This document shows, piece by piece, positions 1,786 through 31,427 of a stretch of 32,993 bases of DNA; position 1 is the stretch's first letter; each line of letters starts with the position of its first letter. This stretch comes from Burkholderiales bacterium (GTDB taxonomy: Bacteria; Pseudomonadota; Gammaproteobacteria; Burkholderiales; Burkholderiaceae_C), in NCBI GenBank assembly GCA_043766725.1, contig JAYUHT010000254.1, forward strand, positions 1-32,993, written 5' to 3'. The notes beneath the pieces are model-generated. The model searched no databases and was not told the origin of the DNA. It saw nothing but the letters and a program-made list of their open reading frames with translations. Made by a program: the position numbers and the translations under genes.

Positions 1786-4700
1786 TCAAAACCCCTCGAG
1801 TCGCGGCAAGCCTGGATCGGGCACGGGCCGCGACGCGCGGGCCCTTTGTCGTCGTTGCGAGGGGCCGAGAGGCGCATCGGTGAACAGGCCTAGCGCCTGC
1901 ATCGCCACAGCGTCCAGCAGCGGCCCGGTGCAGATTCGCTCCAGCAGCTTGGCGGCTGCCGGTTCGAGTTCGATCAGCCAGCCCAGCACATTGAGCAGAT
2001 CAAGCAACTCGGTCGTGTACTCGGCGAGCCAGGCTTCAGGCTGGATATCACCGAGCGGCGAAGGCGCGCGGCGGTCGCCGATGATCGGGCGCTCGCGCGA
2101 CTTGCGGCGGTAGCTGAACCACTGCACGAGCACCTGCTTGCCCGACACCTCGTAGTGCCACACCGCCGCCGGCACCGGCGCGATGTAGCCCGTGCCCACG
2201 TGGAGGCGCTGGGCCGTTGCGTCATAGCTCATGACGTCGGGCATGCCGGCGCTGTCAGTCGGGATCGCACCGCCGGCCGGCACCTTGGGGCGGCGTTCCG
2301 GCGGCAGCCGCGGCGGGCCGGGCGGGCGGCCCGCCGCGGAGTCTGCAAGGCGCTCGCCGAAGCTGTGCAGCCAGACCACGCGGCGGCCGAGGGCTGCGGC
2401 ATCGGCGAAGGTGGCGGCATCGGCGGTGAGCGGGATGCGCAGGCCGGGCGTGGCGAGGTCGTTGCGAAAGCGTTCGATGTAGGCCGGGTGCGCGGCCACG
2501 GCGGCGATGTAGGCGAACAGGTCTTCGGCACTGACGGGCTGGCCATAGGTCGTCGAAAGGTGGGACAGCAACGCGGGGCGCAGGTTGGGCTGCGTGGCTG
2601 CGGCGTCGGCCCAGAGCGGGAACGCACGGCCGCCACGACCGTTGTAGTGGTGGAGGTCCGGTATGAGTGCGGATACCGTCGCGGCGGGTCCGTCGGTCGG
2701 TGGTCGATCATGCGGCGCTGTGAGATAGACCTGTGCTCCGCTACGAACCTGCCACAACTCCGGGTTCGGCCGATTGATCAGTCTCACGTCTGGAACGATC
2801 CATTGACGATCGAACGACCGTACCCCGTAGGCGACCGGCGCCACGGACGCCCCGGTCTCCTGCCCGACGGGCCGCTCACTGACCGGATAACCCGCAAGCG
2901 AAGTCGAGACCACCCGCGCCACATGCCGATCACCGAGGCCCTCCTTCGCAAGGTGCGGGTGAAAGAGTCGCTCCTTGTCCTGCACCGGCGCCGCGACGAG
3001 CCTTGCCCAGCGCCGCGTCAGTGATTCGGCGTCCGGCGCGATCACCCACGTGCGCCCGGGCATCACACCCGAGCCGTTGTAGATGAAGAAATCCTCCAGC
3101 GCCGGATGCGCCGCCCAGTCTGCGGTGGATGCCGGCAGAAAGGGCGCTCGGCCATCGTGCGGGCACAGCACCCAGCCCGGCGCGTCCAGCTTCAGTGCCG
3201 CCAGCGCCTCGAATTTCGCGCTTCGGTGCCCCGCCGGCAACGCGCGCCAGCGCACGACAGCCGGCTGCGTTTTCTGGCTCGCGTTCCACTGCGACGCCAG
3301 CACGATGCACACCGGCTGCTGCACGCCCTGGAATATCCGTGTGGCCACTTCCGGCTGGTGGCCTTCGGGCGAACAGTCGATCACCCAGACCTCGTGGCAG
3401 CGCTGGCGCAAGTACTCGCGCATGCGCTGAAAGCCGGGCCCGCCGAGGAAGCCGGCCACGGTAATGAACGCCACGATGCCGCTGCCCGCGGCGGCACCCA
3501 TGGCCGGTTGGTGGTCGAACACTTTCCAGGTGGCCCAGCGCCAGAAATAGACGTACAGGTTGCGCAGGTGCTTGCTGTGCGCGCTCGCGCCCCAGGCCAG
3601 CGGCGGCATCCAGTCGTCAAGCGGCGCATACATGCCCTTGGCGCGGCCCTCGCCTTCGACCCAGCCGCCGCGGCCCTTGGCCTTTTCTTTATAGGGCGGG
3701 TTGCCGATGACCACCGTGATGGGCTCATCGCGCTTGATGCGGTTGGCGTCTTTGCGCTGCCTGCCGATGGGGGCCAGGAAGCCCGGGAAGCGGCCGCCGT
3801 CGTCGTGCGGGTTGCCCAGCGTGTCGGTCACGAACATGCGTGGCGCCGTCTTGGGCGGTGCGCCCGTCAGCGCCAGGGCCTCGGCGATCACGCGCAATTG
3901 CGCCACTGCAAAAGGCCCGAGCTGCAGCTCGAATGCGAGCAGCCGCTGCATCGCCGATTCGATGGCTGCGGCCACCGCGCCCGGCCCTTCGTCGGCGGCC
4001 ACGGTGGCGGCAACATGCCGCAGCACGCCGAGCACGAAGGTGCCGGTGCCCGTGGCCGGGTCGGCAATGGTCACGCTGCGGTCTGCGATGCCGCGTGGCC
4101 GATCAAAGCCCGGCCGACGCAAGGCTTCATCGACCAGGCCGACCATGCTGCCCACAACTTCCGGCGGCGTGTAGTAAGAGCCTGTGAGCTTGCGCAGATC
4201 GCTGTCATAGACCTCGAGAAAGTCTTCGTAGAAGTACAGCCAGGCATCGGTGCGGCCCTTGCTGATGGTGGGCCAGTCCACGACATCGAGCACCCGTTCC
4301 AGCGTGCGCAGCGAAGTCGACAGGGCCTTGCGCGTCTCGTCGCTGTAGGTCAGCAGCTGTAGTGCGGTGCCGATGAGTGAAGAGGTTTTCTTTAACTCCT
4401 CGGAGACCCCGTGCATGCCCGTGCTGATGCTGATGCCACGCGCCCGCGCCGTGAGCAGACCGAAGGTGACTGCCTGTGCGTAGCCATCTGCGAATTGGCT
4501 GTCGCTGGCTTGCGGGAAGAGCAGTTCACGCCAGTCGGCGGCCAGCGTGGTGAGGGCCTCGCTTTTCTCGGCCAGCGCCTCGGTCACTTCATCGCGCAGC
4601 AGCCGGCACAGCCGCGCGCTGACCTCAGCCAGTTCCTTGGCGGTCCTGGGTGGAATGGGATCCCACCGGAAGAAGAACTCGAACAGCGCTTGCAGGCCTT

Positions 4701-5160
4701 GACCCGGCGCGAGCTTGTCGCCGGAGGCTTCGATGTCGCCGTCCAGCCGCACCAGCGGGCATGCGAGTTCGCCGTTGCGCCAGAGGCTGAACTCGTTGCC
4801 GTCAGCGTAGATGAGATTGGGCAAGGATTGCAGGCGCTGCCATTGCGCCTTGTCGTGCGCCCCTCTCATGCGGCGCGGGTCGGCGCCCTTGCCGGGGGCC
4901 TTGAGTTCAACAAAACCTGCCAACGCGCCGTTCACCGTGATTGCATAGTCTGGCCGCGTGTGAAGGGCTGCTATGGAGGTTTCGCCCACGGTCACGACGG
5001 CGCCTGGGGCAAAGCCGCAAAGCGCGGCCATGTGGCCAACAAGCTGCTCAAAGGGCCCGCGAAGTTGATCTTCGGGTTCGCCCGTCACCGAGGGGTTGTT
5101 GAGCTTGGCCTTTGCGCTTTTGCCGAACTGTGCGACCACTTCAACCAGTGATGGCTTCAT
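1786..5160 (-). CDS. Single-polypeptide restriction-modification enzyme (Type IIG/IIL-like; N6-adenine MTase with Type ISP-like C-terminal specificity region)
   Basis: About 1124 aa from ATG 5160 (track extends to TTG 5205). N-terminal PD-(D/E)xK nuclease (RPDY...FVELK), GSYYTPPEVV, motif I DPATGTGTF, motif IV GNPPY, NLYVYFWRW, C-terminal YEVSGKQVLVQW. No helicase motifs seen. Confidence 0.88.
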   Translation of the reverse strand: MKPSLVEVVAQFGKSAKAKLNNPSVTGEPEDQLRGPFEQLVGHMAALCGFAPGAVVTVGETSIAALHTRPDYAITVNGALAGFVELKAPGKGADPRRMRGAHDKAQWQRLQSLPNLIYADGNEFSLWRNGELACPLVRLDGDIEASGDKLAPGQGLQALFEFFFRWDPIPPRTAKELAEVSARLCRLLRDEVTEALAEKSEALTTLAADWRELLFPQASDSQFADGYAQAVTFGLLTARARGISISTGMHGVSEELKKTSSLIGTALQLLTYSDETRKALSTSLRTLERVLDVVDWPTISKGRTDAWLYFYEDFLEVYDSDLRKLTGSYYTPPEVVGSMVGLVDEALRRPGFDRPRGIADRSVTIADPATGTGTFVLGVLRHVAATVAADEGPGAVAAAIESAMQRLLAFELQLGPFAVAQLRVIAEALALTGAPPKTAPRMFVTDTLGNPHDDGGRFPGFLAPIGRQRKDANRIKRDEPITVVIGNPPYKEKAKGRGGWVEGEGRAKGMYAPLDDWMPPLAWGASAHSKHLRNLYVYFWRWATWKVFDHQPAMGAAAGSGIVAFITVAGFLGGPGFQRMREYLRQRCHEVWVIDCSPEGHQPEVATRIFQGVQQPVCIVLASQWNASQKTQPAVVRWRALPAGHRSAKFEALAALKLDAPGWVLCPHDGRAPFLPASTADWAAHPALEDFFIYNGSGVMPGRTWVIAPDAESLTRRWARLVAAPVQDKERLFHPHLAKEGLGDRHVARVVSTSLAGYPVSERPVGQETGASVAPVAYGVRSFDRQWIVPDVRLINRPNPELWQVRSGAQVYLTAPHDRPPTDGPAATVSALIPDLHHYNGRGGRAFPLWADAAATQPNLRPALLSHLSTTYGQPVSAEDLFAYIAAVAAHPAYIERFRNDLATPGLRIPLTADAATFADAAALGRRVVWLHSFGERLADSAAGRPPGPPRLPPERRPKVPAGGAIPTDSAGMPDVMSYDATAQRLHVGTGYIAPVPAAVWHYEVSGKQVLVQWFSYRRKSRERPIIGDRRAPSPLGDIQPEAWLAEYTTELLDLLNVLGWLIELEPAAAKLLERICTGPLLDAVAMQALGLFTDAPLGPSQRRQRARASRPVPDPGLPRLEGF

Positions 5161-5318
5161 TATCAAATCCACTCCCCGCGTAGTTTGGCAATTGTCGGTG
5201 TTCAAGTCGACTGGCCGGATGCAGCTGGAAGCTTGAGCAGTACTGATCTGCTGTTTCAGCCTCTAAAGCCACAACGGCAAATTTGCTTGGCAGCACGGTT
5301 CAGCGCTGCGCAGGGGTC

Positions 5319-18214: not shown

Positions 18215-19306
18215 ATGGGCAAGACACGCTATCGGGGCTCCAATGGGCCGGTGCCAAAAAACGCCGCCTTCTTCATCTGTGCTGCGGTGCAGACTCATGT
18301 CGCGCAGCGATGTGATGTCGGGACCAAGCGGCGCTCCTGGCTGCTGGCCAGCGCCAGCACCGCGCTGTTCAGCGGCTTTGCTGCGCAGCCATCGCGTGCC
18401 CAGCCTGGCCAGGTGTTGCAACGCATCGGCTATCTGTCGGCAGGCAGCGCCACCTTGAACCCCGCCGGCTTGCAGGCCTTTCGCGAGGGCTTGCGCGAGC
18501 GCGGCCATGTCGAAGGCCGCGATGTCGTGTTGGACGTGCGTTTTGCAGAGGGGCGCGCGCAGGACCTGCCGCGCCTGGCCACTGAGCTCGCCGCGCTCAA
18601 GCCCGTCGTGATCATCGCGCCGGGCCAGGCCACTGACGCAGCGCTGGCCGCCACGGCCACGCTGGCCACGCCCATCGTGTCACTGGGCGACCTGGTCGCC
18701 TCGGGCTACGCGGTGCAGCTCGGGCGCCCGGGTGGAAGGGTCACGGGGATCAGCTTTCTGCCGTTTCCGCTGAATGCCAAGCGCCTGGAGCTGCTCGCGC
18801 AAACCTTGCCCAAGGGCAGCACGGTGCTCAACCTGGCCGGCCTACAGCCCCGGCCCGAAGCCATGCAAATGGTCGAAGACGCGGGGCGCTCGCTGGGGCT
18901 GGTGACGCATGCGGCTTATGCACACACGGTGGAGGAGATCGACGCGGCGTTCGCAGCCGCACGCCGCTTGCGCGTGGCCGGGGTCAACGTGCTCAATTCA
19001 CCGTTCCTGTACAACCTGCGCGCGCACATCTTCCAACTCGCGGCCAGTGCCAAACTGCCCGCCATCTACCAGTGGCCGGACGCCGCGCGCGAGGGTGGAC
19101 TGATGGCCTACGGGCCGAGCCTGGACGCGATGAATCGCCAGCTCGCCGGTTACGCCTCGCGCATCCTGGGTGGCGCCAAGCCGGCCGACCTGCCCATCGA
19201 ACAACCGACGCGGTTCGAGTTGGTCATCAACCTGAAGACCGCCAAAGCGCTAGGCCTTAACGTTCCAAATGCGCTGCTGCTGCGGGCCGACGAGGTGATT
19301 CAATGA
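18215..19306 (+). CDS. ABC-type substrate-binding protein, COG2984/ABC_sub_bind-like (paralogue 1); start uncertain (ATG 18215 or GTG 18287)
   Basis: KRRSWLL signal-like segment, RIGYL, LGRPGGRVTG, KRLELL, GGLMAYGP, GAKPADLPIEQPTRFELVINLKTAKALG, LLRADEVIQ. Confidence 0.88.
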   Translation: MGKTRYRGSNGPVPKNAAFFICAAVQTHVAQRCDVGTKRRSWLLASASTALFSGFAAQPSRAQPGQVLQRIGYLSAGSATLNPAGLQAFREGLRERGHVEGRDVVLDVRFAEGRAQDLPRLATELAALKPVVIIAPGQATDAALAATATLATPIVSLGDLVASGYAVQLGRPGGRVTGISFLPFPLNAKRLELLAQTLPKGSTVLNLAGLQPRPEAMQMVEDAGRSLGLVTHAAYAHTVEEIDAAFAAARRLRVAGVNVLNSPFLYNLRAHIFQLAASAKLPAIYQWPDAAREGGLMAYGPSLDAMNRQLAGYASRILGGAKPADLPIEQPTRFELVINLKTAKALGLNVPNALLLRADEVIQ

Positions 19307-20310
19307 ACCGCCGCCCGTTCATTGCCGCGCTGGCGGGTGGCGTATTCGGCACGGCAGGTATCGTTGTCGCGCAGCCGGCCAAGGTCTGGCGTATCGGCTA
19401 CATCGTGCCGCGCCCGTCTAGCAGTGATCCCACTCGTGCGGCCGGCGTAGCGGCGTTTCATGACGCCATGCGCGAGCGCGGCTACGTGGCGGGGCGCGAC
19501 TATCGCCTGGAAGAACATTCCGTCGACGGCCGCAACGAGCGTTATGCCGAAATCGCCAATGAGCTGGTCGCGAGCCGGGTCGATCTGCTTCTGGTCGGAG
19601 GCACCTCGGGTGCAAGGGCCGCACAAAAGGCGACGGCGACGATCCCCATCGTTATTTTTTCGGCGTCTGACCCGGTGGGCACCGGCCTGGTGGCCAGCCT
19701 GGCGCGCCCGGGCGGCAACATCACCGGCCGCTCGACGATCACCGCCGAGCTCGACCCCAAGCGGCTCGAGCTGCTGCGTGAAGCGGTGCCCGGCCTGGCC
19801 AACGTGTCCGTGTTGATGGTGGTCTCTCGCGAGTCACCGGGCGTGCCTTCATTGCTGGAGCGGGCGTTTGCGGGCGTCGAAGCGGCCGGCCGCCAGCGTG
19901 GCGTTCGCGTCCGGGCGGTGGGGCTGCAGGGCGCGTCGGCGCTGGACGCGGCACTGGCGCAGATTCACAGCCTGCGCCCAGGTGGTCTGATCGTCTTTGA
20001 CCAGGCCGTCGTCTTGCGCGAGAGCGAGCGCATCCTCGATTTCACGCAGCGCGAGCGCCTGCCGGCGATCTTCCAGTCCAGCGGCTGGGTGAGGGCTGGC
20101 GGGCTGATGTCGTATGGGCCGAACACCACCGATGAGCTGCGTCGGATCACCGCCTACGTGGACAAGATCATCAAGGGTGCCAAGCCCGGCGACCTGCCGG
20201 TCGAGCAGCCCACGCAGATCGAACTGGTCATCAACCTATTGACCGCCAAGGCGCTGGGCTTGACGATCCCGCAAACACTGCTGGTGCGGGCCGATGAGTT
20301 GATTCAGTGA
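19303..20310 (+). CDS. ABC-type substrate-binding protein, COG2984-like (paralogue 2)
   Basis: MNRRPF signal, DPVGTGLVASLARPGGNITG, GGLMSYGP, LPVEQPT, RADELIQ; ATGA overlap with paralogue 1. Confidence 0.92.
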   Translation: MNRRPFIAALAGGVFGTAGIVVAQPAKVWRIGYIVPRPSSSDPTRAAGVAAFHDAMRERGYVAGRDYRLEEHSVDGRNERYAEIANELVASRVDLLLVGGTSGARAAQKATATIPIVIFSASDPVGTGLVASLARPGGNITGRSTITAELDPKRLELLREAVPGLANVSVLMVVSRESPGVPSLLERAFAGVEAAGRQRGVRVRAVGLQGASALDAALAQIHSLRPGGLIVFDQAVVLRESERILDFTQRERLPAIFQSSGWVRAGGLMSYGPNTTDELRRITAYVDKIIKGAKPGDLPVEQPTQIELVINLLTAKALGLTIPQTLLVRADELIQ

Positions 20311-20317
20311 ACAACGC

Positions 20318-20578
20318 TCAGGCCGCCGATTCGAGCGCGATCTCCCAGCTCGGGAACACCAGCACTGCCGGATGGCAGTTGAGCGCCCGGGCCAGAACTT
20401 TGGCCCGCTCGACCCCCAGGTTCACGCGATCATTCTCGATCGCGGAAATGGTCGCCTGCGGGATGCCGGTCAGTGCGCAGAGCTGGTTTTGCGTCAGCTC
20501 CTGCAGTTCCCGCAGGATGCGCACCGACTCGCCAACGCTGACGTCGACGCGCTTGCGGGCTGGACGAAACTCTTTCAT
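20318..20578 (-). CDS. XRE-family HTH antitoxin (HigA-like)
   Basis: RBS GGAGG, ATG 20578; LRELQELTQNQLCALTGIPQATISAIEN is an HTH; lies directly downstream of the RelE-like gene. Confidence 0.88.
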   Translation of the reverse strand: MKEFRPARKRVDVSVGESVRILRELQELTQNQLCALTGIPQATISAIENDRVNLGVERAKVLARALNCHPAVLVFPSWEIALESAA

Positions 20579-20579
20579 T

Positions 20580-20820
20580 TCAACGCCTCCGATAGTCGTG
20601 CGCGGGCACTTCAACGACCTGAATCAACATCACGCCAGTAGCCCGCTGGTAGATCACCCGCCACTGCAAACCCAGGCGCGACGAGCGCTGGCCCTTGCAC
20701 TCACCCGACAAGGCTTCATCATGAAATCCCTTGATGGCACGCAGGCCGGCAGGGCCCGAAAGCATGGCGATGTCTTTCCCCTTCTCGTAGCGTTTCAGGA
20801 CTTCCTGGGGAACCGCAGCA
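20580..20820 (-). pseudogene. RelE/HigB/YoeB-like mRNA interferase toxin, apparently lacking its native N-terminus
   Basis: GFHDEALSG..KGQRSSRLGLQWRVIY...HDY is a RelE-fold pattern; sequence upstream of 20820 is an antisense fragment of a binding-protein gene. Confidence 0.75.
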
Positions 20821-20910
20821 GCCAGCACCGCGCTGTTTGGCGGGCTTGCTGCGCAGGCATCGCGTACCCAGCTTGGCCAAGTGTTGCAACGCATAGGCCA
20901 TCTGTCGGCA
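20821..20910 (+). repeat. 90-bp diverged direct copy of 18353-18442 (5' part of SBP paralogue 1)
   Basis: Ungapped manual alignment gives 80/90 identical bases. Confidence 0.92.
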
Positions 20911-20959
20911 ACAAGCGCCCATGCCGCGCGGCGATGTCAAGGTTTGGCGCATGCTGATA

Positions 20960-22414
20960 TCAATCGTTAAGCCATTGAGCGGCCATCTCGCCCAGCGCCG
21001 CGGTGTAGCAGGACATCGGCACGCGCACGATGCCCGCGCCGATTTGCCCGATGCCCGCTTCACGGTGCGCGATGCCGGTGGTGACGATGGGGCGAATGCC
21101 GCTGTCCACCACCTTGCGCACATCAATGCCGCAGGGTGCACCGGCAAAGTCCAGCGCCGGCAAGCTCAAGGCCGGGTTGCGGGTCACCGTCACTTCAAAC
21201 ATTTCGCGGCTGTAGCGCACGGCGTCACTCACCGTGCCGCCGGCCAGCAAGGTGAGCGCGGGCGAGGCGGCGAACGAGCAGCCGCCAAAGCCCGCGGTTT
21301 CGGTGATCGCGCTGTCGCCAATGTCGGGGCAGGCGTCTGCTTGCTTGAAGCCGGGGAAGAACAGGCCCTGCGGCAGATCAGACTTGGCCGTGAACCACCG
21401 CGGCCCCAGGCCGCTGATGCGCAGCCCGGTTTCGGTGCCGTTGCGCGCCGTGGCCGTGACCACGCTGCTGAAGGCAATGCCATGCGCGGCGTCCATGATG
21501 GCTTTGCACGAGACCATGGAAAAGTTCAGGAAGAACTGCGAGGTCTTGGCCACGAAGTCGAGCGTGTGGTGAATATGCTCAGGCGGCGGGCCCCCCCGTT
21601 GCGCGCCCAGCGCCGCCAGCGGCACGGCCAGGGTCATGAAGAACAGTGCGGTGGACGCGGCATTGCGGCTGTGCACTTCGTCGCCCATCAGTAAGGCCTG
21701 CGATTGAATGGCTTTCAGGTCGATGCCGCCGGCCTTGTCGAACTCATGCCGCACGGCCGCCTTGAGCACCGGAGCCAGCACCGCTTCAAACCATTTCAAA
21801 CGTTGCAGCACATCGGGGCCGTTGGCGCCAAAGCGCAGGCAGCGGCCAATGCCTTCATTCAGATTCGTGTAGGCGCGGTTGCCGTGCGTGGCGCAGCGCA
21901 CCTGAATCAAGGGCATGCTGGCGCTGATCACGCCGGTCATCGGCCCCACGGCGGCGTAGTCGTGGCACTGCGCAAATTCCACTTCACCGCGCGCCAGCAT
22001 GGCGTGCGCCTGCTCGGGCGTGCTGGCCCAGCCCTCGTACAACACGGCGCCAACGAGCGCACCATGCATGGGGCCGCACATGTCGTCAAAGGCCACCGGC
22101 GGGCCGGCGTGCAGCAGCAGCCGCGCGCCCTTCATTTGCGGCCACACCGCATCGGCGCGCAGGGCAATGTCTTCCCACAGGGGGCGGGCGTTGATGATGC
22201 GTTGCGTGGCCTGGGCGTTGGCCGCTTCAATGCGCGCATCGCCCATCAGCCGCGCGAGCTGCCAGGCCAGCAGCGGGTCCGCATTGCCGGGCGGGCGCCA
22301 ATGCACGTTCGCCAGGCTGCCGCCGCTGGCGGTGATGCTGGCGTTGAAGCCTTCCAGGCCGATGTTCAGCACCGCCGGCGCCTGGTTGAGCAGGGTGTTC
22401 GCGTTGAGCGTCAT
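20960..22414 (-). CDS. DUF1116 protein (YahG/YlbE-AllG family; putative catabolic carbamoyltransferase subunit)
   Basis: LLHAGPP, MCGPMHGA, AVGPMTG, LNEGIG..LRFGA, MGDEVHSRN, DIGDSAITE, GIGQIGAG; YahG-like N-terminal extension VLNIGLEGF...WRPPG. Confidence 0.9.
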   Translation of the reverse strand: MTLNANTLLNQAPAVLNIGLEGFNASITASGGSLANVHWRPPGNADPLLAWQLARLMGDARIEAANAQATQRIINARPLWEDIALRADAVWPQMKGARLLLHAGPPVAFDDMCGPMHGALVGAVLYEGWASTPEQAHAMLARGEVEFAQCHDYAAVGPMTGVISASMPLIQVRCATHGNRAYTNLNEGIGRCLRFGANGPDVLQRLKWFEAVLAPVLKAAVRHEFDKAGGIDLKAIQSQALLMGDEVHSRNAASTALFFMTLAVPLAALGAQRGGPPPEHIHHTLDFVAKTSQFFLNFSMVSCKAIMDAAHGIAFSSVVTATARNGTETGLRISGLGPRWFTAKSDLPQGLFFPGFKQADACPDIGDSAITETAGFGGCSFAASPALTLLAGGTVSDAVRYSREMFEVTVTRNPALSLPALDFAGAPCGIDVRKVVDSGIRPIVTTGIAHREAGIGQIGAGIVRVPMSCYTAALGEMAAQWLND

Positions 22415-23121
22415 GTTTGTTCGATGGGTAAGGCGGTCAGGGCCAGCAGCAGGCCGGCCAGCATGTCGGCGCCCGAGCTGGCGCCCAGGCCGAGCAGGGT
22501 TTGAGTGTGATGGCCGATGGCCGCGTGCTCGTTGTCTTGCAGCGCGGCCAGCAGCTCGTGCAAGGCGCGGTAGCTGGCGCCGTTCAGCAGATCAGCCAGC
22601 AGGTGGGCGCTGATCTCATTGGTGGCCGCGCGCGCCGCCGCCAGCAAACGCATCCGCACATCCACCAGTGGCTCATGCCAATCGTTAGGTGCGGCGTGCG
22701 CCAAAGCGAAGAACACGCCGCCGGTGAAATCATCGCCGCTGGGCGTGAGGCCCGGGCCCAGGCCCAGCACGCGCAAGCAGGCGGCTTCCAGGGCGGGCAG
22801 GTCGTGCGCGTGCAAAGCACGGCGCACGGCGTCAAAACGCGGCGTGGCCAGCCTGAACGGGAAGGGCAGTTCCTGCGCTTGCAACCACCGCAGCAGCCCT
22901 TTTGCGGGCAGCCCGTGCAGCAAGTTCAGGCAAGTGTTCGCGCCCGCGCGCAAGTCACGGGCGTGAACGCGCAGCGCGGGCGGCTGCCATGGGTGCAGGG
23001 CGTGGCGTGGGTGATCGGTTTGGGCGCGCTTGCCGGCCCATACGAGCACGCCGTTGCGCCAGGCGTAAGCGGTGGCCTCGAAGCCGGCCACGGGTTGCAG
23101 CGCCGCCGTGCCGGCGTTCAC
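22411..23121 (-). CDS. DUF2877 protein (YahE/YlbF-AllH family)
   Basis: LGLGPGLTPSGDDFTGG, TNEIS, LGASSGADMLAG; GTG start overlapping the carbamate kinase stop. Confidence 0.85.
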   Translation of the reverse strand: MNAGTAALQPVAGFEATAYAWRNGVLVWAGKRAQTDHPRHALHPWQPPALRVHARDLRAGANTCLNLLHGLPAKGLLRWLQAQELPFPFRLATPRFDAVRRALHAHDLPALEAACLRVLGLGPGLTPSGDDFTGGVFFALAHAAPNDWHEPLVDVRMRLLAAARAATNEISAHLLADLLNGASYRALHELLAALQDNEHAAIGHHTQTLLGLGASSGADMLAGLLLALTALPIEQT

Positions 23122-24122
23122 GGCCGCCCACCCAAGGTGATGTGGGTGCCCGCGCGCCCCAGCAGGGCTTCATGCGCTTTTTCAAGCGAAGTGATGATCA
23201 CTTCACCCGCCGCATTGGCCTGTGGCGCTTCTTGCAGGAAGCTGATGGCGGCCTCGATCTTCGGCCCCATGCTGCCGGGCGGAAACTGGTCTTGGGCCGC
23301 GTACTCGCGCGCCTGCGCCAAGCTGAGGTGGTCCAGCCAGCGCTGGCCGGGTTGGTTGTAGTCGAGCGCCACGCGCTCCACGCCGGTGAGCATGATCAGC
23401 GCATCCGCATGCAGGTGCGCGGCCAGCATGGCGCTGGTCAGGTCCTTGTCGATCACCGCGGCCACGCCCTGCCAATGGCCCTGCGCGGTGTGCAGCACCG
23501 GCACGCCGCCGCCGCCGCAGGCGATTGGGATCACGCCCGCATCGAGCAGGGCGTCGATCGTTTTCAGATCGAGAATCTTGCGCGGCTTGGGGCTGGCCAC
23601 CATGCGGCGCCAGCCGCGGCCCGAATCTTCGGCAAAGTACCAGCCGGTACTGGCGGCCATCTGCTTGGCTTCAAGCTCGCTGAAGAACCTGCCCACGGGC
23701 TTGGTGGGGTTGTGAAACGCCGGGTCGTCGGCGTCCACTTCCACTTCCGTGATGATGCAAGACACCACCACGTCCAGCCCTTTGTCGACCAGCACATTGG
23801 CCAGGCTTTGCTGCAGCATGTAGCCCATGCCGCCTTGCGAATGCGCCACGCACACATCCATGGGCATGGGCGGCAGTTCGTTGGCGGTGCGCGCCATGCG
23901 ATAGAGGATGTTGCCCACCACCGGGCCGTTGCCATGGGTGAGCACGAGCTGCCAGCCGGCATGGATGATTTCTACCAAGTGGCCGCAAACCTGGCGCATC
24001 AAGGCCAGTTGCTCCTCGGCCGTGCCCTTGATGGTGGGCGGATACGCCGCATTGCCGCCCAGGGCCACCACCACGCGCTTGCGTGGTGTTAACGCTTGGC
24101 GAAACTTCTTCACAGCAGCCAT
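23118..24122 (-). CDS. arcC: Carbamate kinase
   Basis: VVALGGNA, THGNGPVVG, SQGGMGY, PTKPVG, GWRRMVASP, GGGGVPV, AVIDKD, GSMGPKIEAA. Confidence 0.95.
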   Translation of the reverse strand: MAAVKKFRQALTPRKRVVVALGGNAAYPPTIKGTAEEQLALMRQVCGHLVEIIHAGWQLVLTHGNGPVVGNILYRMARTANELPPMPMDVCVAHSQGGMGYMLQQSLANVLVDKGLDVVVSCIITEVEVDADDPAFHNPTKPVGRFFSELEAKQMAASTGWYFAEDSGRGWRRMVASPKPRKILDLKTIDALLDAGVIPIACGGGGVPVLHTAQGHWQGVAAVIDKDLTSAMLAAHLHADALIMLTGVERVALDYNQPGQRWLDHLSLAQAREYAAQDQFPPGSMGPKIEAAISFLQEAPQANAAGEVIITSLEKAHEALLGRAGTHITLGGRP

Positions 24123-25654
24123 TGCCCCGCCAGCCAGGCCGCGTTGGCGCTGTTGCCCGCCAGCACCATGCCGGCCGCACGCAGCGTGGCCTCTTGGCGC
24201 GACAGCACTTGCGGGTCTAGCTCGGTGCCGCAGACAAAACCCAGCACGGCCAGCTCGCGCCCGCCCTGGCGCGCCTGGCGCCTGGCCTGCTGGATAGCGC
24301 TGGCCAGCTCGGCCGCGGGGTCGGCATGCGCGCCCCAGCCAATGACCACATCGAGCACGATGACGCGCACCTGCGGATCGTTAGCTTCCTTGAGCAAGCG
24401 CTCGATGCGCGCCGCCTGGTCAATCATCGGGTGCGGGCGACCCACGGTGAACTCATCGTCACCCAAATCGAGCACGCTGTGGCCCAGGCTGGCCTGGCGT
24501 GGGTTGGGCAACGCATGTTGCGAATCAAGTGGAACGTTAGACCACACGGCCAATCCAGATCGGGCCCACAGCACCTGCGCCTCGTAAGCGTAGGTGCCAC
24601 CTGAATACAGGGCGCGCAAATACTTCTGCTGTGCCTTGAAGCGCGGCTTGGGCGGCAATGCATAGGCCTGCATGGCCGAGCGCTTGCGGCCGGCCAGCTT
24701 CACCGCCGCGGCGGCGCAATCCACCAAGGTGTTCACCACACGAATACCGGGGGCGCGCACTGTGCTGCCCAGGAACAGCAGCACGGCCGGCTTGCCTGCG
24801 GCCTGCAAGGCGGCCACCACCTTGGCGGCCACTTCAGGCGCGGGGGGCTTGGACAACACCGCGATCACTTGGGTGGCCGGGTCTTGCGCCAGCAGCGCGA
24901 TGCCGCGCAGCAAGCTGGTGCCGCCGACCGCCGCGCTGCCGTCGCGCCCGCCGGTGCCGATGGCGTGGCTCACGCCGCCGCCCATGCGGTGGATTTGCGT
25001 GCTCACCTCTTGCAAGCCCGTGCCCGACGCGCCCACCAGCCCGATGCTGCCGGCGCGCACGTTGTTGGCAAACCCGAGCGGCACCCCGGCGACGATGGCG
25101 GTGCCGCAGTCGGGGCCCATCACCAGCAGGCCGCGCTTGGCGGCTTCTTGCTTCATGGCCACCTCCTGCGCCAGTGGCACGTTGTCGCTGAACATGAACA
25201 CGTTCAAGCCGCGTTGCAAGGCCTTCAACCCTTCGGCCCCGGCATATGCACCGGGCACTGATATTTGCGCGATGTTGGGCGGCGCCGCAGTGCCCGGGCG
25301 GGCCAGGGCCATGGCACTGCTGCGTGGCGGAACGACTTCTTGCGCGCTGGTGCTGGCACCCTGCTCGTGCTGGCCCACCAGGTGCGCCTGCGCCGCCGTG
25401 CGCGCGGCCTCGCCAGCGCCGGGCGTGCGAGCCTGCACCACCACCATCACGTCAGCCGGCCCGGCCTCTTGGATCGCGCCATGCAGCAACCCGGCTTCTT
25501 GCAGAATGGCCTTGTTCGCGGCCGTGCCCATTTGCAGGCTGGCGTTCACCACGTCGGGCAGGGCCAGCAAGCGCTGCGCCACTCGCATCAGGGCCACGGA
25601 GTCCTGGTACAGGTTGGGCTGGATGAAGGCAAGGGTGTGCAGGGGCGGGGTCAT
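24110..25654 (-). CDS. fdrA: FdrA/YahF family protein (acyl-CoA synthetase-like fold; AllF-like)
   Basis: YQDSVALM, MGTAANK, ISVPGAYA, MFSDNV, MGPDCGT, VGASGTGLQE, HAIGTGGRD, YSGGT, DLGDDEFTVGRPHPMID. Confidence 0.93.
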   Translation of the reverse strand: MTPPLHTLAFIQPNLYQDSVALMRVAQRLLALPDVVNASLQMGTAANKAILQEAGLLHGAIQEAGPADVMVVVQARTPGAGEAARTAAQAHLVGQHEQGASTSAQEVVPPRSSAMALARPGTAAPPNIAQISVPGAYAGAEGLKALQRGLNVFMFSDNVPLAQEVAMKQEAAKRGLLVMGPDCGTAIVAGVPLGFANNVRAGSIGLVGASGTGLQEVSTQIHRMGGGVSHAIGTGGRDGSAAVGGTSLLRGIALLAQDPATQVIAVLSKPPAPEVAAKVVAALQAAGKPAVLLFLGSTVRAPGIRVVNTLVDCAAAAVKLAGRKRSAMQAYALPPKPRFKAQQKYLRALYSGGTYAYEAQVLWARSGLAVWSNVPLDSQHALPNPRQASLGHSVLDLGDDEFTVGRPHPMIDQAARIERLLKEANDPQVRVIVLDVVIGWGAHADPAAELASAIQQARRQARQGGRELAVLGFVCGTELDPQVLSRQEATLRAAGMVLAGNSANAAWLAGQWLL

Positions 25655-25762
25655 CAAGTCGCTCGATGGTTCATGAAAGCGCTGAGCGTGCAGCGCAGGC
25701 AGTCTGTGAAGGTCGCTTTGCTACGATGAACCGATCAGGCTTTCAACCGGCACCGCCCTCGC

Positions 25763-27025
25763 ATGACCCTGCCCAAATTGTCACCTCTGGCCGAACCCGC
25801 CTCGGCATTGAACGAACTCAACCCCGCACCGCGTTTGTTGATGGGCCCCGGCCCCATCAACGCCGACCCGCGCGTGCTGCGCGCCATGTCTGCCCCGCTG
25901 CTGGGCCAGTTCGACCCGCAGTTTCGCGGCTACATGCGCGAGACCATGGCGCTGTACCGCGCCTTCTTTGAAACGAAGAACGACTGGACCCTGGTGCTCG
26001 ACGGCACCGCGCGCGCCGCCATTGAAATGGTGATGCTTTCGGCCACGGCGCCCGGCGACAAGGTGCTGGTGTGCAGCTTCGGCCGCTTTGGCCAGTTGCT
26101 CGATGAAATCGCGCAGCGCTGCGGCGCTAACGTTCGGGTTGAGAAGGTGCCCTGGGGCACGGTATTCAGCCTGGAACAGATCGAAGCCGCGCTGAAGGCC
26201 CATTCACCCAAGCTGGTGGCGATCTGCCAGGGCGACACCTCCACCACCATGTTGCAGCCTCTGGCCGGGCTGGGTGAGCTGTGCCACCGCTACGGCGCGC
26301 TGCTGCAGGTGGATGCCACGGCCTCGTGCGGTGGCACGCCGCTGCCGGTGGACGGCTGGGCTGTGGATGCCGTGACGGCCGGCCTGCAAAAGTGCCTGGC
26401 CGGGCCGTCGGGCGCGGCGCCGATCACGCTGTCGCCAGCCATGGCTGAATTGATCTACAGCCGCCGCCACATCGAACAAGGCCTGCAAACCGCGGGCTAC
26501 GTGCCAGGCAGCGGGCCGCGCATTGCCTCGAACTACATGGACCTGGCCATGGTGATGGACTACTGGAGCGACGCTGGCCTGAACCACCACACCGAAGCCA
26601 CCACCATGCTTTATGGCGCCCGCGAATGCGCCCGCATCTTCGTGCAAGAGGGCTTGCCACAGGCCTACGCGCGCCACGCCGCCGCCTCGCGCGCGGTGGT
26701 GGCCGGCGTGCAGGCCATGAACCTGAAGCTATATGGCGACTTGGCCAACAAGATGCCCAACGTGACCGGCATCTACATCCCCGAAGGCCTGAACGGCGAG
26801 CGCGTGCGCGCCGCGCTGCTGAAGCACTTCAACATCGAGATCGGCACCAGCTTCGGACCGCTGCACGGCAAGGTCTGGCGCATCGGCGCCATGGGCTACA
26901 ACGCCCGGCCTGATTGCGTGCTGAACACCCTGGGCGCGCTGGAAGCGGTGCTCGCCGCCGAGGGCCACCGCTTCACACGCGGGGCGGGGGTGGACGCCGC
27001 CTACCAAAGCTACCAAGGCGCTTGA
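25763..27025 (+). CDS. pucG: Class V PLP aminotransferase, (S)-ureidoglycine-glyoxylate aminotransferase-like (PucG/HpxJ)
   Basis: RLLMGPGPINADPRVLRAMS, GQFDP, DATAS, GLQKCL (PLP Lys), SNYMDL, LNHHTEATT, IEIGTSFGPLHGKVWRIG. Subfamily call rests on recalled PucG sequence features. Confidence 0.82.
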   Translation: MTLPKLSPLAEPASALNELNPAPRLLMGPGPINADPRVLRAMSAPLLGQFDPQFRGYMRETMALYRAFFETKNDWTLVLDGTARAAIEMVMLSATAPGDKVLVCSFGRFGQLLDEIAQRCGANVRVEKVPWGTVFSLEQIEAALKAHSPKLVAICQGDTSTTMLQPLAGLGELCHRYGALLQVDATASCGGTPLPVDGWAVDAVTAGLQKCLAGPSGAAPITLSPAMAELIYSRRHIEQGLQTAGYVPGSGPRIASNYMDLAMVMDYWSDAGLNHHTEATTMLYGARECARIFVQEGLPQAYARHAAASRAVVAGVQAMNLKLYGDLANKMPNVTGIYIPEGLNGERVRAALLKHFNIEIGTSFGPLHGKVWRIGAMGYNARPDCVLNTLGALEAVLAAEGHRFTRGAGVDAAYQSYQGA

Positions 27026-27179: not shown

Positions 27180-28349
27180 ATGCTAGACCGCCAGGCTCAT
27201 GCGCTGCTGCACCAGATGGCGCGCGGCTTTTCCGTGATCGCCCTCACCGGCCCGCGCCAATCAGGCAAGACCACGCTGGCCCGCCTGGCCTTTGCAGACA
27301 AGCCGTATCTGTCGCTCGAAGACCTGGAAGTGCGCCAGCGCGTGCTGGCAGATCCGCGGCAGTTCTTGGCACAACTGCCCAACGGCGCGGTGCTCGACGA
27401 AGCGCAGCGCTGCCCCGAGCTGTTTTCCTATCTGCAAGGGGTGGTGGACGAGCGCGCGCGCATGGGCGAATTCGTGCTCACAGGTTCACAGCAATTCGGC
27501 CTCACCGCAGCCATCACCCAGTCTCTGGCCGGGCGGGTGGGGCTGGTACACCTGCTGCCGCTGTCGTGGCCTGAACAACAGCACGCCGGCGTGGCCGCCA
27601 AGACGCTTGAACAAGCCGTGTGGGCGGGCGGCTACCCGGCGCTGTTTGATGCGCGCCGCCGCATCGAGCAGCCCGAGCAATGGTTCAGCGCCTACACGGC
27701 CAGCTACATCGAGCGCGATGTGCGCCAGGTGCTTGGCGTGGCCAACTTGTCGCTGTTCCGCCGCTTTGTGCTGATGTGCGCGGCGCGCACTGGGCAGCTG
27801 CTGAACTTGTCTGCGCTGGCCAGCGATTGCGGCATCAGCCACACCACCGCGCGCAGCTGGCTCACCGTGCTGGAAGCCAGCTACGTGGTGTACCTGCTGC
27901 CGCCGTTTCACCAGAACTTCGGCAAGCGCCTGGTGAAGATGCCCAAGCTGTACTTTCTGGACACCGGCCTGCTGTGCCACCTGCTGCGCATCGACAGCCC
28001 TTTGACGCTGGCCACCCACGCCCTGCGCGGCGCCATTTTCGAGTCGTGGGTGGTGGCTGAAACGCTCAAGCACCGGTTCAACCAGGGCATGAATGCCGAT
28101 CTCTATTTTTGGCGCGACAACCACGGCACCGAGGTCGACTTGATCTTCGAACACGCCGGCTTGCTGCACGCGGTGGAAGTGAAGTCTGGCGCCACGTTTG
28201 CGCCCGATTGGCTGCAAGCCTGCCAGCGCTGGCAGCGCTACGCCGGCGCTGCCGCGGCGGCGCCGGTGCTGGTGTACGGCGGGCGTGACAGCTACGGGGT
28301 GAGCGGCGTGCGGGTGATGGCTTGGCACCAGCTGGGCTGCGCGCCGTGA
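27180..28349 (+). CDS. AAA_14 ATPase with DUF4143 domain (COG1373)
   Basis: Walker A GPRQSGKTT, Walker B VLDEAQ, LTGS, SLAGR, GGYP, YIERDV, KMPKLYFLDTGL, C-terminal EVDL...VEVKS nuclease-like motif. Confidence 0.93.
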   Translation: MLDRQAHALLHQMARGFSVIALTGPRQSGKTTLARLAFADKPYLSLEDLEVRQRVLADPRQFLAQLPNGAVLDEAQRCPELFSYLQGVVDERARMGEFVLTGSQQFGLTAAITQSLAGRVGLVHLLPLSWPEQQHAGVAAKTLEQAVWAGGYPALFDARRRIEQPEQWFSAYTASYIERDVRQVLGVANLSLFRRFVLMCAARTGQLLNLSALASDCGISHTTARSWLTVLEASYVVYLLPPFHQNFGKRLVKMPKLYFLDTGLLCHLLRIDSPLTLATHALRGAIFESWVVAETLKHRFNQGMNADLYFWRDNHGTEVDLIFEHAGLLHAVEVKSGATFAPDWLQACQRWQRYAGAAAAAPVLVYGGRDSYGVSGVRVMAWHQLGCAP

Positions 28350-28477: not shown

Positions 28478-29464
28478 ATGATTCGTCGTCGCATGCTTGG
28501 CGCGGCAATTGGCGCAGTGCCGCTAACCTGGCATTACACAGGGCACACCCAATCGACCGTGGCCTTTCGCCGCGTGGGCCTGATCACGGGTGGCTCGCAA
28601 GCCGGCGCCAGCGCGTATGTGGCGGCATTCAAGCAAGGCATGGCTGACCTGGGCTGGATTGAGGGCCGCAACGTGCAGTACCACTTCGCCTATGCCAATG
28701 GCGACATGGGCCGCTTTGATGCCCTGGCGCAAGAGCTGCTGGCGCAAGGCGTTGAGCTGGTTGTGAGCGGCCCGAACGAAGGTACCCGCGCGGTGCACGC
28801 CGCGGCCCCTGCGCTGCCCATCGTGATGGCCTACAACGCCAACGTGCTCAAGCATGGCTTTGTGGCCAGCCTGGCCCGCCCCGGTGGCGTGATCACCGGG
28901 TTGAACATGCAGGCAGAAGACTTGTTCGGCAAGCTGCCGCAGATGCTGCATGAGATGTTGCCGCAGGTGCGGCGCGTGGCCGTGCTGAGCGGTGGCACGT
29001 CTGACTTCACCAACGACTCCTGGGTCGGTACGCAGCGTGCCTGCATGGCGCTGGGGCTGGTGGCGCAGCGCTTCACAGCCACCAATGCGGCACAGTTGGA
29101 CGACGTCATCAAGCAAATCCAGCAGCAGCGCCTGGATGCCGTGGTGGTACCCGCCAACACCTTGCTCATCGCCGAGCGCGTGCGCCTGCACAGCCTGCTG
29201 CAAGCCGCCGCTTTGCCGGCGGCCTATGCCCTGCGTGAGCATGCCTTGGCCGGTGGCTTGTTCAGCTACGGCGCCAACGTCAATGCCCACTTTCGCACCG
29301 CCGCCAGGTACGTTGACAAGATCCTCAAGGGCGCCAAGCCGGCCGACCTGCCGGTTGAACAGCCCATGACCTTCGAGCTGGTCATCAACCTGGCCACCGC
29401 CAAGGCCTTGGGCATTAACGTTCCAAAAGCGCTGCTGCTGCGCGCCGATGAGGTGATTCAATGA
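28478..29464 (+). CDS. ABC-type substrate-binding protein, COG2984-like (paralogue 3)
   Basis: RBS GGAGG, MIRRRML signal, VASLARPGGVITG, GGLFSYG, GAKPADLPVEQP, LLRADEVIQ. Confidence 0.92.
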   Translation: MIRRRMLGAAIGAVPLTWHYTGHTQSTVAFRRVGLITGGSQAGASAYVAAFKQGMADLGWIEGRNVQYHFAYANGDMGRFDALAQELLAQGVELVVSGPNEGTRAVHAAAPALPIVMAYNANVLKHGFVASLARPGGVITGLNMQAEDLFGKLPQMLHEMLPQVRRVAVLSGGTSDFTNDSWVGTQRACMALGLVAQRFTATNAAQLDDVIKQIQQQRLDAVVVPANTLLIAERVRLHSLLQAAALPAAYALREHALAGGLFSYGANVNAHFRTAARYVDKILKGAKPADLPVEQPMTFELVINLATAKALGINVPKALLLRADEVIQ

Positions 29465-30432
29465 GTCTGCACCGCCGTGCCCTGGCCGCGCTGCCCCTGG
29501 CCGTGTTGCTGCCCACGCCATGGGCCCAGGCCTTGCCGCGCATTGCGTGGGTGTGGCCCGGCAGCGCCAGCGGCGACGCCGTGCGCCTGGCTGCCTTCAA
29601 GGAAGGCATGCGCGACGCCGGCATGCTGGAAGGGCAGCACTACCTGCTTGACATGCGCTACGCCGATGGCCAGTACGAGCGCTTCACGCCGCTGATTGCC
29701 GAGTTGCTGGCGGCCCGGCCGGCTGTTCTGATGGTCAACACCATTGCCTCGGTGCGCGCGGCGCAGCAGGCCACCACCAGCGTGCCCATCATCTTCGTGG
29801 CCACCAACGACCCCGTGGGCAGCGGCCTGGTCGCCAGCTTGGCGCGGCCCGGCGGCAACACCACGGGGCTGTCATCACAGAACGAGGACACGGCGATCAA
29901 GAACCTGCAGCTCTTGCGCGAGATGCTGCCGCGCGCGTCGCGGCTGGCCGCGCTGGTCAACCCGGGCAACCCTTCGGCGGCAAAAATTTTTGAGCCCGTG
30001 CGCGCGGCGGCGCAGCGCCTGGGCATCGACGCCTTTGCGGTGGAACTGGCCTCGCCCCAGGGCCTGGACGCCGCCTTCGGCCTCGTCATGGCGCGCCGCC
30101 CCGACGCCTTGCTGGCCATCCCGGACGCCCTGTTCAACAGCGAGCGCGAACACATCGCCGCCCTGGCCCTCAAGCACCGCTTGCCCTACTTCACCACCAA
30201 CCGTGAAAGCACGGCGGCCGGTGGCCTGCTTTCGTACGGCCAGCCGCAAATGGTGATGTTTCGCCGCTCGGCCCTGTATGTGAAGAGCATCCTGGCCGGT
30301 GCCCGGCCGGCCGAGTTGCCGGTTGAGCAACCCACGCGGTTCGAGTTGGTCGTCAACCTGAAGACGGCACGGGCGCTGGGTATTAACGTTCCAAATGCGC
30401 TGCTGCTGCGCGCCGATGAGGTGATTGAATGA
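29461..30432 (+). CDS. ABC-type substrate-binding protein, COG2984-like (paralogue 4)
   Basis: MSLHRR signal, DPVGSGLVASLARPGGNTTG, GGLLSYG, LPVEQPTRFELVVN, LLRADEVIE; ATGA overlap. Confidence 0.92.
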   Translation: MSLHRRALAALPLAVLLPTPWAQALPRIAWVWPGSASGDAVRLAAFKEGMRDAGMLEGQHYLLDMRYADGQYERFTPLIAELLAARPAVLMVNTIASVRAAQQATTSVPIIFVATNDPVGSGLVASLARPGGNTTGLSSQNEDTAIKNLQLLREMLPRASRLAALVNPGNPSAAKIFEPVRAAAQRLGIDAFAVELASPQGLDAAFGLVMARRPDALLAIPDALFNSEREHIAALALKHRLPYFTTNRESTAAGGLLSYGQPQMVMFRRSALYVKSILAGARPAELPVEQPTRFELVVNLKTARALGINVPNALLLRADEVIE

Positions 30433-31427
30433 ACCCACCGCGACGCTGGCTGTTGCAATGGCTGGCCGGCGCAGCCGCCCTGCACGGGCGGGCCGCGCTG
30501 GCCCAGGCCAAGGTGGTGCGCGTGGGCTTTCTGGTGTTCCAGGCGCCACCGAACCCGGCCGACCCCAACTCGCGCTCCGTCGAGCAGGGCTTGCTCGACG
30601 CCGGCTACGTCGAAGGCCGCAACCTGGTGATCGAGCGCCGCTATGCCCAGGGCAACGCCCAACTTCTTCCGGCGTTGGCCGCAGAGCTGGTGCAGGCGCA
30701 GGTCGATGTCATCATGATCTTCGGCCCGGCGCCGCTGGAGGCCGCGCGCAGGGCGACCCGAACCATTCCCTTGGTGATGCTGGCCAGCAGCAGCGACCCG
30801 GTGGCCGATGGCCTGGCGGTGAGCCTGGCACGGCCGGGCGGCAACATCACCGGGTTGACGTACGCGGTGTCGTCGGGGCGCTTTGGCAAGCAGCTCGAAT
30901 TGCTCCAGCTTGCGGCGCCTCGGCTCGGGCGGGTGGCCGTGCTGTGGGATCTCGACCTGGAGATTTATCGCCGTTCCTGGGCCGCGCCGATGGCCGATGC
31001 CGCGCGCACCCTGGGCCTGGAGGTGCTGGCACCCACCATCGTGCAGGCGGCGCGCGACCTGCCCGAAGCCTTTGCACAAATGAAGCGGCAACGGGCCGAC
31101 GCGATCCTTGTCGCCACAGGCGGCCCGCTGAATGCGGCACGCGCGCAAGTCGGCGCGCTGGCGATTCAGCACCAGCTACCCACCATCGCGGCGTTCAAGG
31201 CATTTGTACAGGCCGGTCTGCTGATGAGTTACGGCCCCGACCTGCCGGACATCAATCGCCGCGGCGCCAGTTATGTCGATCGCATCGTCAAGGGCGCGAG
31301 GCCCGGCGAGCTGCCGATCGAATTGCCGATCAAGTACGAGCTGGTGATCAACCGCACGACCGCCAGAGCCCTGGGCATCACGATCCCGCAAGAGCTGCTG
31401 CTGCGCGCGGATGAGGTGATTCAATGA
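30429..31427 (+). CDS. ABC-type substrate-binding protein, COG2984-like (paralogue 5)
   Basis: MNPPRRWLL signal, SLARPGGNITG, GLLMSYGP, LLRADEVIQ; ATGA overlap. Confidence 0.92.
   Translation: MNPPRRWLLQWLAGAAALHGRAALAQAKVVRVGFLVFQAPPNPADPNSRSVEQGLLDAGYVEGRNLVIERRYAQGNAQLLPALAAELVQAQVDVIMIFGPAPLEAARRATRTIPLVMLASSSDPVADGLAVSLARPGGNITGLTYAVSSGRFGKQLELLQLAAPRLGRVAVLWDLDLEIYRRSWAAPMADAARTLGLEVLAPTIVQAARDLPEAFAQMKRQRADAILVATGGPLNAARAQVGALAIQHQLPTIAAFKAFVQAGLLMSYGPDLPDINRRGASYVDRIVKGARPGELPIELPIKYELVINRTTARALGITIPQELLLRADEVIQ

Follow-up and report, generated by a model that had tools for sequence, protein, structure and literature searches.

To our knowledge, the oxamate transcarbamylase AllFGH, identified in 2024, has been characterised only in Escherichia coli, as an anaerobic step fed by AllD, and no substrate is assigned to its many paralogs. 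The E. coli enzyme converts oxamate and carbamoyl phosphate to oxalurate, with all three genes required, and allFGH and allK lie downstream of allECD (PMC11326118). PucG converts ureidoglycine and glyoxylate to oxalurate and glycine (PMC11384730; PMC6522883; PMC11880463), and HpxW converts oxamate to oxalate and ammonium (PMC5270733). Here we describe a locus that brings genes of these families together on a 32,993-nucleotide stretch of DNA from a Burkholderiales bacterium (the window, which is contig C254, JAYUHT010000254.1, of assembly G000, GCA_043766725.1; 645 contigs, 71% complete), in which a pucG/hpxJ-like aminotransferase gene faces an operon of allF, allK, allH and allG. From the encoded protein families and their arrangement in related genomes, we consider it likely that the locus is a conserved module that would finish urate and allantoin breakdown through PucG-formed oxalurate, its phosphorolysis by AllFGH and ATP formation by AllK, without AllD or AllE.

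The aminotransferase gene and its link to allFKHG

The initial annotation of this DNA described four components overlapping in one operon, 108 bp from a divergent pucG-like gene, and the list of open reading frames (ORFs) together with Pfam and NCBIfam matches confirmed this layout. All five frames are intact at the coordinates proposed for them (Table 1), FdrA, DUF1116 and DUF2877 subunits and a carbamate kinase occur together in one operon, and the minus-strand order is allF-allK-allH-allG, with successive overlaps of 13, 4 and 4 nt. The window holds no allD, as had also been noted, and the best AllD-like match in the 71% complete genome reaches 34% identity and scores 177 bits, where the cut-off is 496. 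The GC content of the locus is similar to that of the remainder of the window.

The best solved relatives of the window aminotransferase are the ureidoglycine-glyoxylate aminotransferase 3NNK (539 bits, E 5.5e-161) and Bacillus subtilis PucG, 3ISL (411 bits, E 3.5e-122), compared with 273 bits (E 2.8e-80) for the best alanine-glyoxylate aminotransferase. In alignments, an insert and the motifs GQFDP, NHHTEAT and TSFGP are common to the window protein, 3NNK and 3ISL and are absent from alanine-glyoxylate aminotransferase, and the lysine of the QKCL motif, which we take to be the pyridoxal phosphate lysine, is conserved. The protein is 59.5% identical to Klebsiella pneumoniae HpxJ, and in the tree it groups with proteins from hpx clusters, far from the two paralogs of its own genome. 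By scores, motifs and tree the protein belongs to the PucG/HpxJ type first suggested for this gene and not to an alanine/serine-glyoxylate type, and ureidoglycine transamination is its predicted reaction.

A scan of species genomes returned 45 allG loci, mostly from Burkholderiales, Rhodoferax, Polaromonas, Rubrivivax and Comamonadaceae metagenome-assembled genomes; 33 of these, at at least 74% identity, are called close loci below, and 12 are more distant (the sister group, 59-69%). Most carriers are incomplete metagenome-assembled genomes and are kin, and the counts given here overstate their independence (G115 and G068 being one genome). A divergent pucG lies 63-212 bp from allF in every close locus with a visible upstream flank (22/22). 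Among genus relatives, both orthologs occur in one genome of 24 (G019), where they diverge as in the window. Of 300 family genomes drawn evenly, four had a pucG ortholog and eight had allG, and all four pucG genes, from two genera, adjoin allG with hpxW. From the pucG side, 91 metagenomic loci were confirmed and 80 kept; where pucG was at least 80% identical and more than 290 bp of upstream sequence was available, allF was found upstream in all 14 loci. The linkage is thus not unique to the window genome, and the layout is kept in dozens of related aquatic bacteria.

Where pucG falls below 69% identity, allFGHK is nearby in 9 of 36 loci. Across the 80 metagenomic loci, 25 carry allF/G/H/K, 15 carry hpxX/Y/Z, none carries both and 40 carry neither (Fisher p 0.004 for exclusion, on which we do not rely, the loci being kin and many of them short); allD and allE are absent from all 80. 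The distant pucG loci that bear allFG form a second arrangement, whose AllG forms a clade apart from the window type. One of them (L188) holds within 13 kb genes for urate oxidase, HIU hydrolase, OHCU decarboxylase, an M20 amidohydrolase, PuuE, PucG, carbamate kinase, AllH, AllF and AllG. In 400 phylum genomes, pucG occurred in 18, allG in 13, both in seven and the two within 20 kb of each other in two; these linked pairs belong to family f25 and to clusters with allE, allD and a fused allFG, showing that outside the window type the two can occur together. Three small genomes (G502, G617 and G510; loci L092, L095 and L096) have fused allF-allG, allE, allD, allC and pucG within or close to a single cluster, with two allantoinase-like and two permease genes, bringing both oxalurate-producing routes together.

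hpxW and the supply of ureidoglycine

The initial annotation treated the operon as four genes, which holds for the frames of the window, but the conserved unit includes a sixth gene of the locus, hpxW, that was overlooked and that has been lost from the window copy. Of the 31 close loci whose downstream flank can be seen, 26 have an hpxW-like gene directly after allG; the other five, like the window, have none there. It encodes a 541-amino-acid protein of the gamma-glutamyltransferase (GGT) fold, which scores 321 and 264 bits against the chains of 5HFT, named as the oxamate amidohydrolase HpxW (PMC12360370), versus at most 228 for other structures. Chain B of 5HFT begins at T355 of the query, the Thr that starts the small chain, and the GGT family score is below its cut-off; gene context is what distinguishes hpxW from ggt in PMC3560190. 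The four carriers from the family draw have hpxW at 78-83% identity, and the gene is also found next to allG in the sister-clade locus L106, where it follows it, and in its vicinity in L147.

The window retains only a 34-nt stub of hpxW, running from 20952, with no match beyond it to the intact genes of L025 and L027. Contigs from four of four sequencing runs bridge the junction without differences, all from one study that is possibly the source of the assembly. At the expected hpxW site (20318-20894, minus strand) we found a small ORF without a Pfam match, presumably HigB-like, followed by an HTH_3 gene, and the two are a probable toxin-antitoxin pair. As the first 79 nt of this element resemble window positions 18349-18426, the sequence suggests a repeat-mediated rearrangement where hpxW was cut. 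Another contig of G000, C114 (L011), carries allH-allG-hpxW, with DNA 87% identical to the window and 94% to L026 and with AllG at 92% amino-acid identity. Its depth runs opposite to that of the window contig across the four runs, a weak hint that this copy may come from a co-binned relative and not be a second chromosomal copy supplying hpxW. The identities of the C114 operon do not track those of its flanking genes (prfC is 98% identical to that of G060, the operon 85-87%), as would be expected if close relatives exchange DNA here or if the bin is mixed.

Upstream, the genome contains the allantoinase and allantoate amidohydrolase for which the initial annotation had advised a search, as PuuE and a UraD-amidohydrolase fusion, along with a PuuD-type urate oxidase and HIU hydrolase. 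The fusion is split over the ends of contigs C286 and C611. Its second domain matches allantoate amidohydrolase families, the specific families all scoring below cut-off, and we infer that it would yield ureidoglycine; a hydantoinase/carbamoylase-family amidase scored above cut-off in all 40 other genomes searched. Directly after the fusion on C611 (L012:440-1669) lies a gene for an ArgE/DapE-family M20 peptidase, clustered in this way in 7 of 12 loci, and relatives without pucG could usually dispose of ureidoglycine through this enzyme.

Searches for competing exits bore out the absence of AllD: none scored above cut-off in 41 genomes, the 71% complete G000 included. AllE was likewise below cut-off in all 27 carrier genomes and AllA in all five genomes searched, while HpxZ exceeded it in 1 of 27 carriers and AtzE/HpxY in 5 of the 41 genomes. 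No HpxX, HpxZ or HpxY ortholog was found in loci L011-L069 or in G000. In the four carriers that are 93-99% complete, AllD, AllE, AllA and AtzE/HpxY were all below cut-off; urease is whole in one of these and in pieces in another, and oxalyl-CoA decarboxylase occurs in all four, a count that has no background control. A search for allantoicase gave no match in any control genome and so carries no weight.

On these assignments, allantoate would be converted to ureidoglycine and NH3, and the PucG/HpxJ-type aminotransferase would turn ureidoglycine and glyoxylate into oxalurate and glycine. The AllF-AllG-AllH complex would then split oxalurate with phosphate to oxamate and carbamoyl phosphate, from which AllK would form ATP and carbamate (NH3 + CO2), and in most relatives HpxW would release oxalate and NH3 from oxamate. 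All four purine nitrogens would be recovered without urease, and the module would stand in for the hydrolysis by HpxXYZ in the Klebsiella route. Since hpxW is cut in the window, the pathway there would stop at oxamate, as it does in E. coli, if no other enzyme consumes it. The synthesis of arginine or pyrimidines could draw on the carbamoyl phosphate as well. For a cell that respires, a single ATP per purine is a small yield, which makes nitrogen recovery the likelier benefit and the ATP gain probably its by-product. The hybrid, transamination-fed phosphorolytic route advanced in the initial annotation is thus supported as an interpretation by the aminotransferase type, the linkage, the upstream genes and the AllD searches, its individual reactions being predicted from sequence.

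Substrate of the AllFGH complex and rival readings

The window proteins are 42, 51, 32 and 38% identical to E. coli AllF, the AllG core, the C-terminal part of AllH and AllK, and 42, 42, 27 and 44% identical to YahF, YahG, YahE and YahI, respectively. Residues 512-554 of E. coli AllF match residues 14-56 of the window AllG, placing the F/G boundary at the Yah-type split. His408 of AllF, in the motif GRPHPMID, is invariant in four of four aligned FdrA proteins; we take it to resemble the phospho-carrier histidine of succinyl-CoA synthetase, and by that analogy it could serve as a phospho-carrier. AllH has a confident predicted fold (predicted local distance difference test score 93), and its TPSGDD motif is invariant in the alignment. 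Foldseek returned no match to the AllH model at E 0.001, the weak rows being DraG glycohydrolases at E 0.26, and the best Z score in a wide search was 5.1.

In unrooted trees of 27 and 24 rows, from which L022-L024 and L067 were left out, AllG groups follow gene context, with the allD-linked, cysteine-hydrolase-linked and window-type copies each on one side of a well-supported branch. A second AllG clade, apart from the window type and sister to the allD-linked one, is joined to pucG in a full urate cluster. Because the window FdrA and DUF1116 proteins have the Yah split and an AllG clade of their own, it is gene context, and not orthology to the E. coli proteins, that points to oxalurate; the AllF/G sequence alone does not give the substrate. 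A tree constraining window-type AllG to group with the allD-linked copies was not rejected (approximately unbiased test, p-AU 0.154). The cysteine-hydrolase-linked clade (L099-L103, L107, L108, L021 and L113) always lies beside a cysteine hydrolase gene and occurs on many E. coli IncF plasmids, and it may act on a biuret-like compound instead of oxalurate. Among the best 60 of 172 AllG records, plasmid matches are mostly of this E. coli type, and no plasmid common to both match sets is listed.

Several of our observations weigh against an oxalurate route as drawn above. Window-type AllG falls on the YahG/cysteine-hydrolase side of a 96/86 branch, outside the E. coli AllG clade. The sister group has pucG in only 1 of 9 loci with a visible flank and hpxW in 0 of 12, and where pucG is 69-79% identical, allFGHK is nearby in 2 of 25 loci, G039 likewise being without it. 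AtzE/HpxY scores above cut-off in one operon carrier, G059, with partial high-scoring matches in G053 and G060, and the amidase beside the L188 cluster is 35% like HpxY. The upstream fusion is present in 21 of 24 genus relatives and the module in 1 of 24, which makes the module dispensable; it is an optional, accessory add-on.

Some of these points would suit a reading that we regard as unlikely, in which the FdrA-type complex acts on another ureido compound (biuret-like compounds or N-carbamoyl amides) and stands beside pucG merely through shared nitrogen scavenging. The Yah-type split, with 42% identity to AllF and YahF alike, fits such a role, as do the position of the window nearer to the cysteine-hydrolase-linked copies in the AllG tree, the sister-group loci without purine neighbours and, in nitrifiers, the placing of allFGHK beside biuH/trtA (PMC12625717). 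It accounts less well for a complex sandwiched between an oxalurate producer and an oxamate remover, for the recurrence of hpxW beside or near allG in L106 and L147, for the lack of an hpxY alternative in the four near-complete carriers, or for the 80 loci in which hpxX/Y/Z never co-occurs with it.

Oxalurate might instead be phosphorolysed but come mainly from outside, as oxalurate or parabanate from chemical urate oxidation, or serve to make carbamoyl phosphate for biosynthesis, with PucG flux and ATP being minor. We judge this improbable. In window-type genomes the module is not linked to the puuE/uraD cluster, most relatives with that cluster lack the module, reuse of carbamoyl phosphate in biosynthesis has been noted (PMC11326118), and a parabanate-induced transcarbamylase is cited by title in PMC3364942; pucG, however, is the most constant neighbour (22/22), carbamate kinase lies within the operon, no conserved transporter recurs in window-type loci, and in the second-arrangement loci the entire urate pathway is clustered together. 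A last reading, which we hold to be very improbable, has AllF acting as an oxamate:CoA ligase, or the window copy decaying, so that this strain lacks the route in its proposed form. Pfam finds CoA-ligase domains retained in AllF, an older CanOE proposal of this kind appears in PMC3364942, and hpxW is cut in the window; yet none of the five frames is disrupted, their identity to the L025 genes is 81-94%, hpxW is also missing from 5 of 31 close loci, and the E. coli transcarbamylase requires all three subunits.

Returning to a module that carries PucG-formed oxalurate through AllFGH and AllK, we lean, with less assurance, towards a broader proposal: that it represents a third purine-nitrogen route, assembled more than once, in which at least two AllG lineages would have displaced HpxXYZ in oxygen-using aquatic urate degraders, without urease and with one substrate-level ATP, and that oxalurate is the substrate of the Yah-architecture AllFG clade. 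As two AllG lineages have pucG and lack hpxYZ, their independent assembly with pucG is the simplest reading of the unrooted trees. The enzyme families are all known; the novelty lies in how they are wired together, in the recurrence of that wiring and in the partnership with hpxW, and not in the chemistry. The cluster offers a divergent AllFGH test case bracketed by a substrate producer and a product consumer, would extend carbamoyl-phosphate energy capture to an HPX-type route, would fill the oxalurate step in genomes with pucG but without hpxY, and would change pathway maps for freshwater and sediment Burkholderiales.

Features of the locus and comparison with known systems

Table 1. Coordinates of the locus in the window and the matches behind each assignment
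Feature	Coordinates	Strand	Details
pucG/hpxJ-type (S)-ureidoglycine-glyoxylate aminotransferase (likely)	25763..27025	+	420 aa; class V aminotransferase; 3NNK/3ISL best matches
Divergent intergenic region, 108 bp	25655..25762	.	counted from allF ATG at 25654
allF/fdrA, YahF-type length, 514 aa	24110..25654 (alternative start 25657)	-	NF004760 492 bits, cut-off 433
allK carbamate kinase, 334 aa	23118..24122	-	TIGR00746 358.6 bits, cut-off 358.25
allH (DUF2877), 236 aa	22411..23121	-	PF11392 E 7e-20; invariant GLTPSGDD
allG (DUF1116), 484 aa	20960..22414	-	PF06545 E 2e-78; PDB 3CLQ E 2e-100
hpxW (oxamate amidohydrolase) remnant, first 34 nt only	20919..20952	-	34/34 nt identical to L025, L027 hpxW starts

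Within the intergenic region, a TTTGCTAnnAT-like stretch at about 25717-25728 is kept in 11 aligned loci and would be an extended -10-like element facing pucG; a sigma-70 consensus scan of the region gave no site, and no regulator gene recurs beside the module among window-type loci. The locus is flanked by five tandem PF04392 substrate-binding-like genes (18215-20310 and 28478-31427), unaccompanied by genes for a permease or an ATPase. A Type ISP-like restriction-modification gene (1786-5205, minus strand) and an AAA+/DUF4143 ATPase gene (27180-28349, plus strand) are typical mobile cargo.

In the literature searched, which covered full text and few subscription papers, we found no description of pucG/hpxJ clustered with allFGHK or hpxW. 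Oxalurate from the ureidoglycine aminotransferase has been raised as a possible feed for oxamate transcarbamylase (PMC5270733), and a preprint on turtle ants draws, at map level, ureidoglycine to oxalurate and on to oxamate or carbamoyl phosphate (10.1101/2021.09.08.459499). The nitrifiers of PMC12625717 have allFGHK with biuH and, in the text accessible, no pucG; the 'all' genes (allantoin cluster) were predicted in PMC3364942, and the accessible text of PMC13751858 makes no mention of oxalurate.

The locus shares with E. coli allFGHK the same four families in one operon. It differs in its order (F-K-H-G), its YahF/G-type split, its lack of allE and allD, its separate AllG clade and the hpxW that follows in relatives, and its oxalurate would come from transamination rather than from AllE/AllD. 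Compared with the Klebsiella hpx genes (hpxJK, hpxWXYZ), whose HpxJ is 59.5% identical to the window aminotransferase, the HpxW-like gene of the relatives is 52-62% identical, and hpxJ and hpxW are transcribed away from each other in both; window-type loci have allFKHG in place of hpxX, hpxY, hpxZ and hpxU, whereas K. pneumoniae is without allFGHK (PMC11326118). Relative to B. subtilis PucFG, whose PucG is the 3ISL match given above, the window pucG adjoins oxalurate-consuming genes, and the allantoate amidohydrolase, as a UraD fusion, is encoded away from the locus. E. coli yahEFGI and the biuH/cysteine-hydrolase-linked allFGHK operons have the same F/G split and a carbamate kinase partner, but their neighbours differ from those of the window and the clades are separate. 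Finally, the Rubrobacter ureidoglycine carbamoyltransferase with its carbamate kinase also phosphorolyses a purine-derived ureide to carbamoyl phosphate, as the window complex is predicted to do, but that enzyme has the aspartate transcarbamoylase fold, acts on allantoate one step earlier and is unrelated to the window proteins (PMC4016543).

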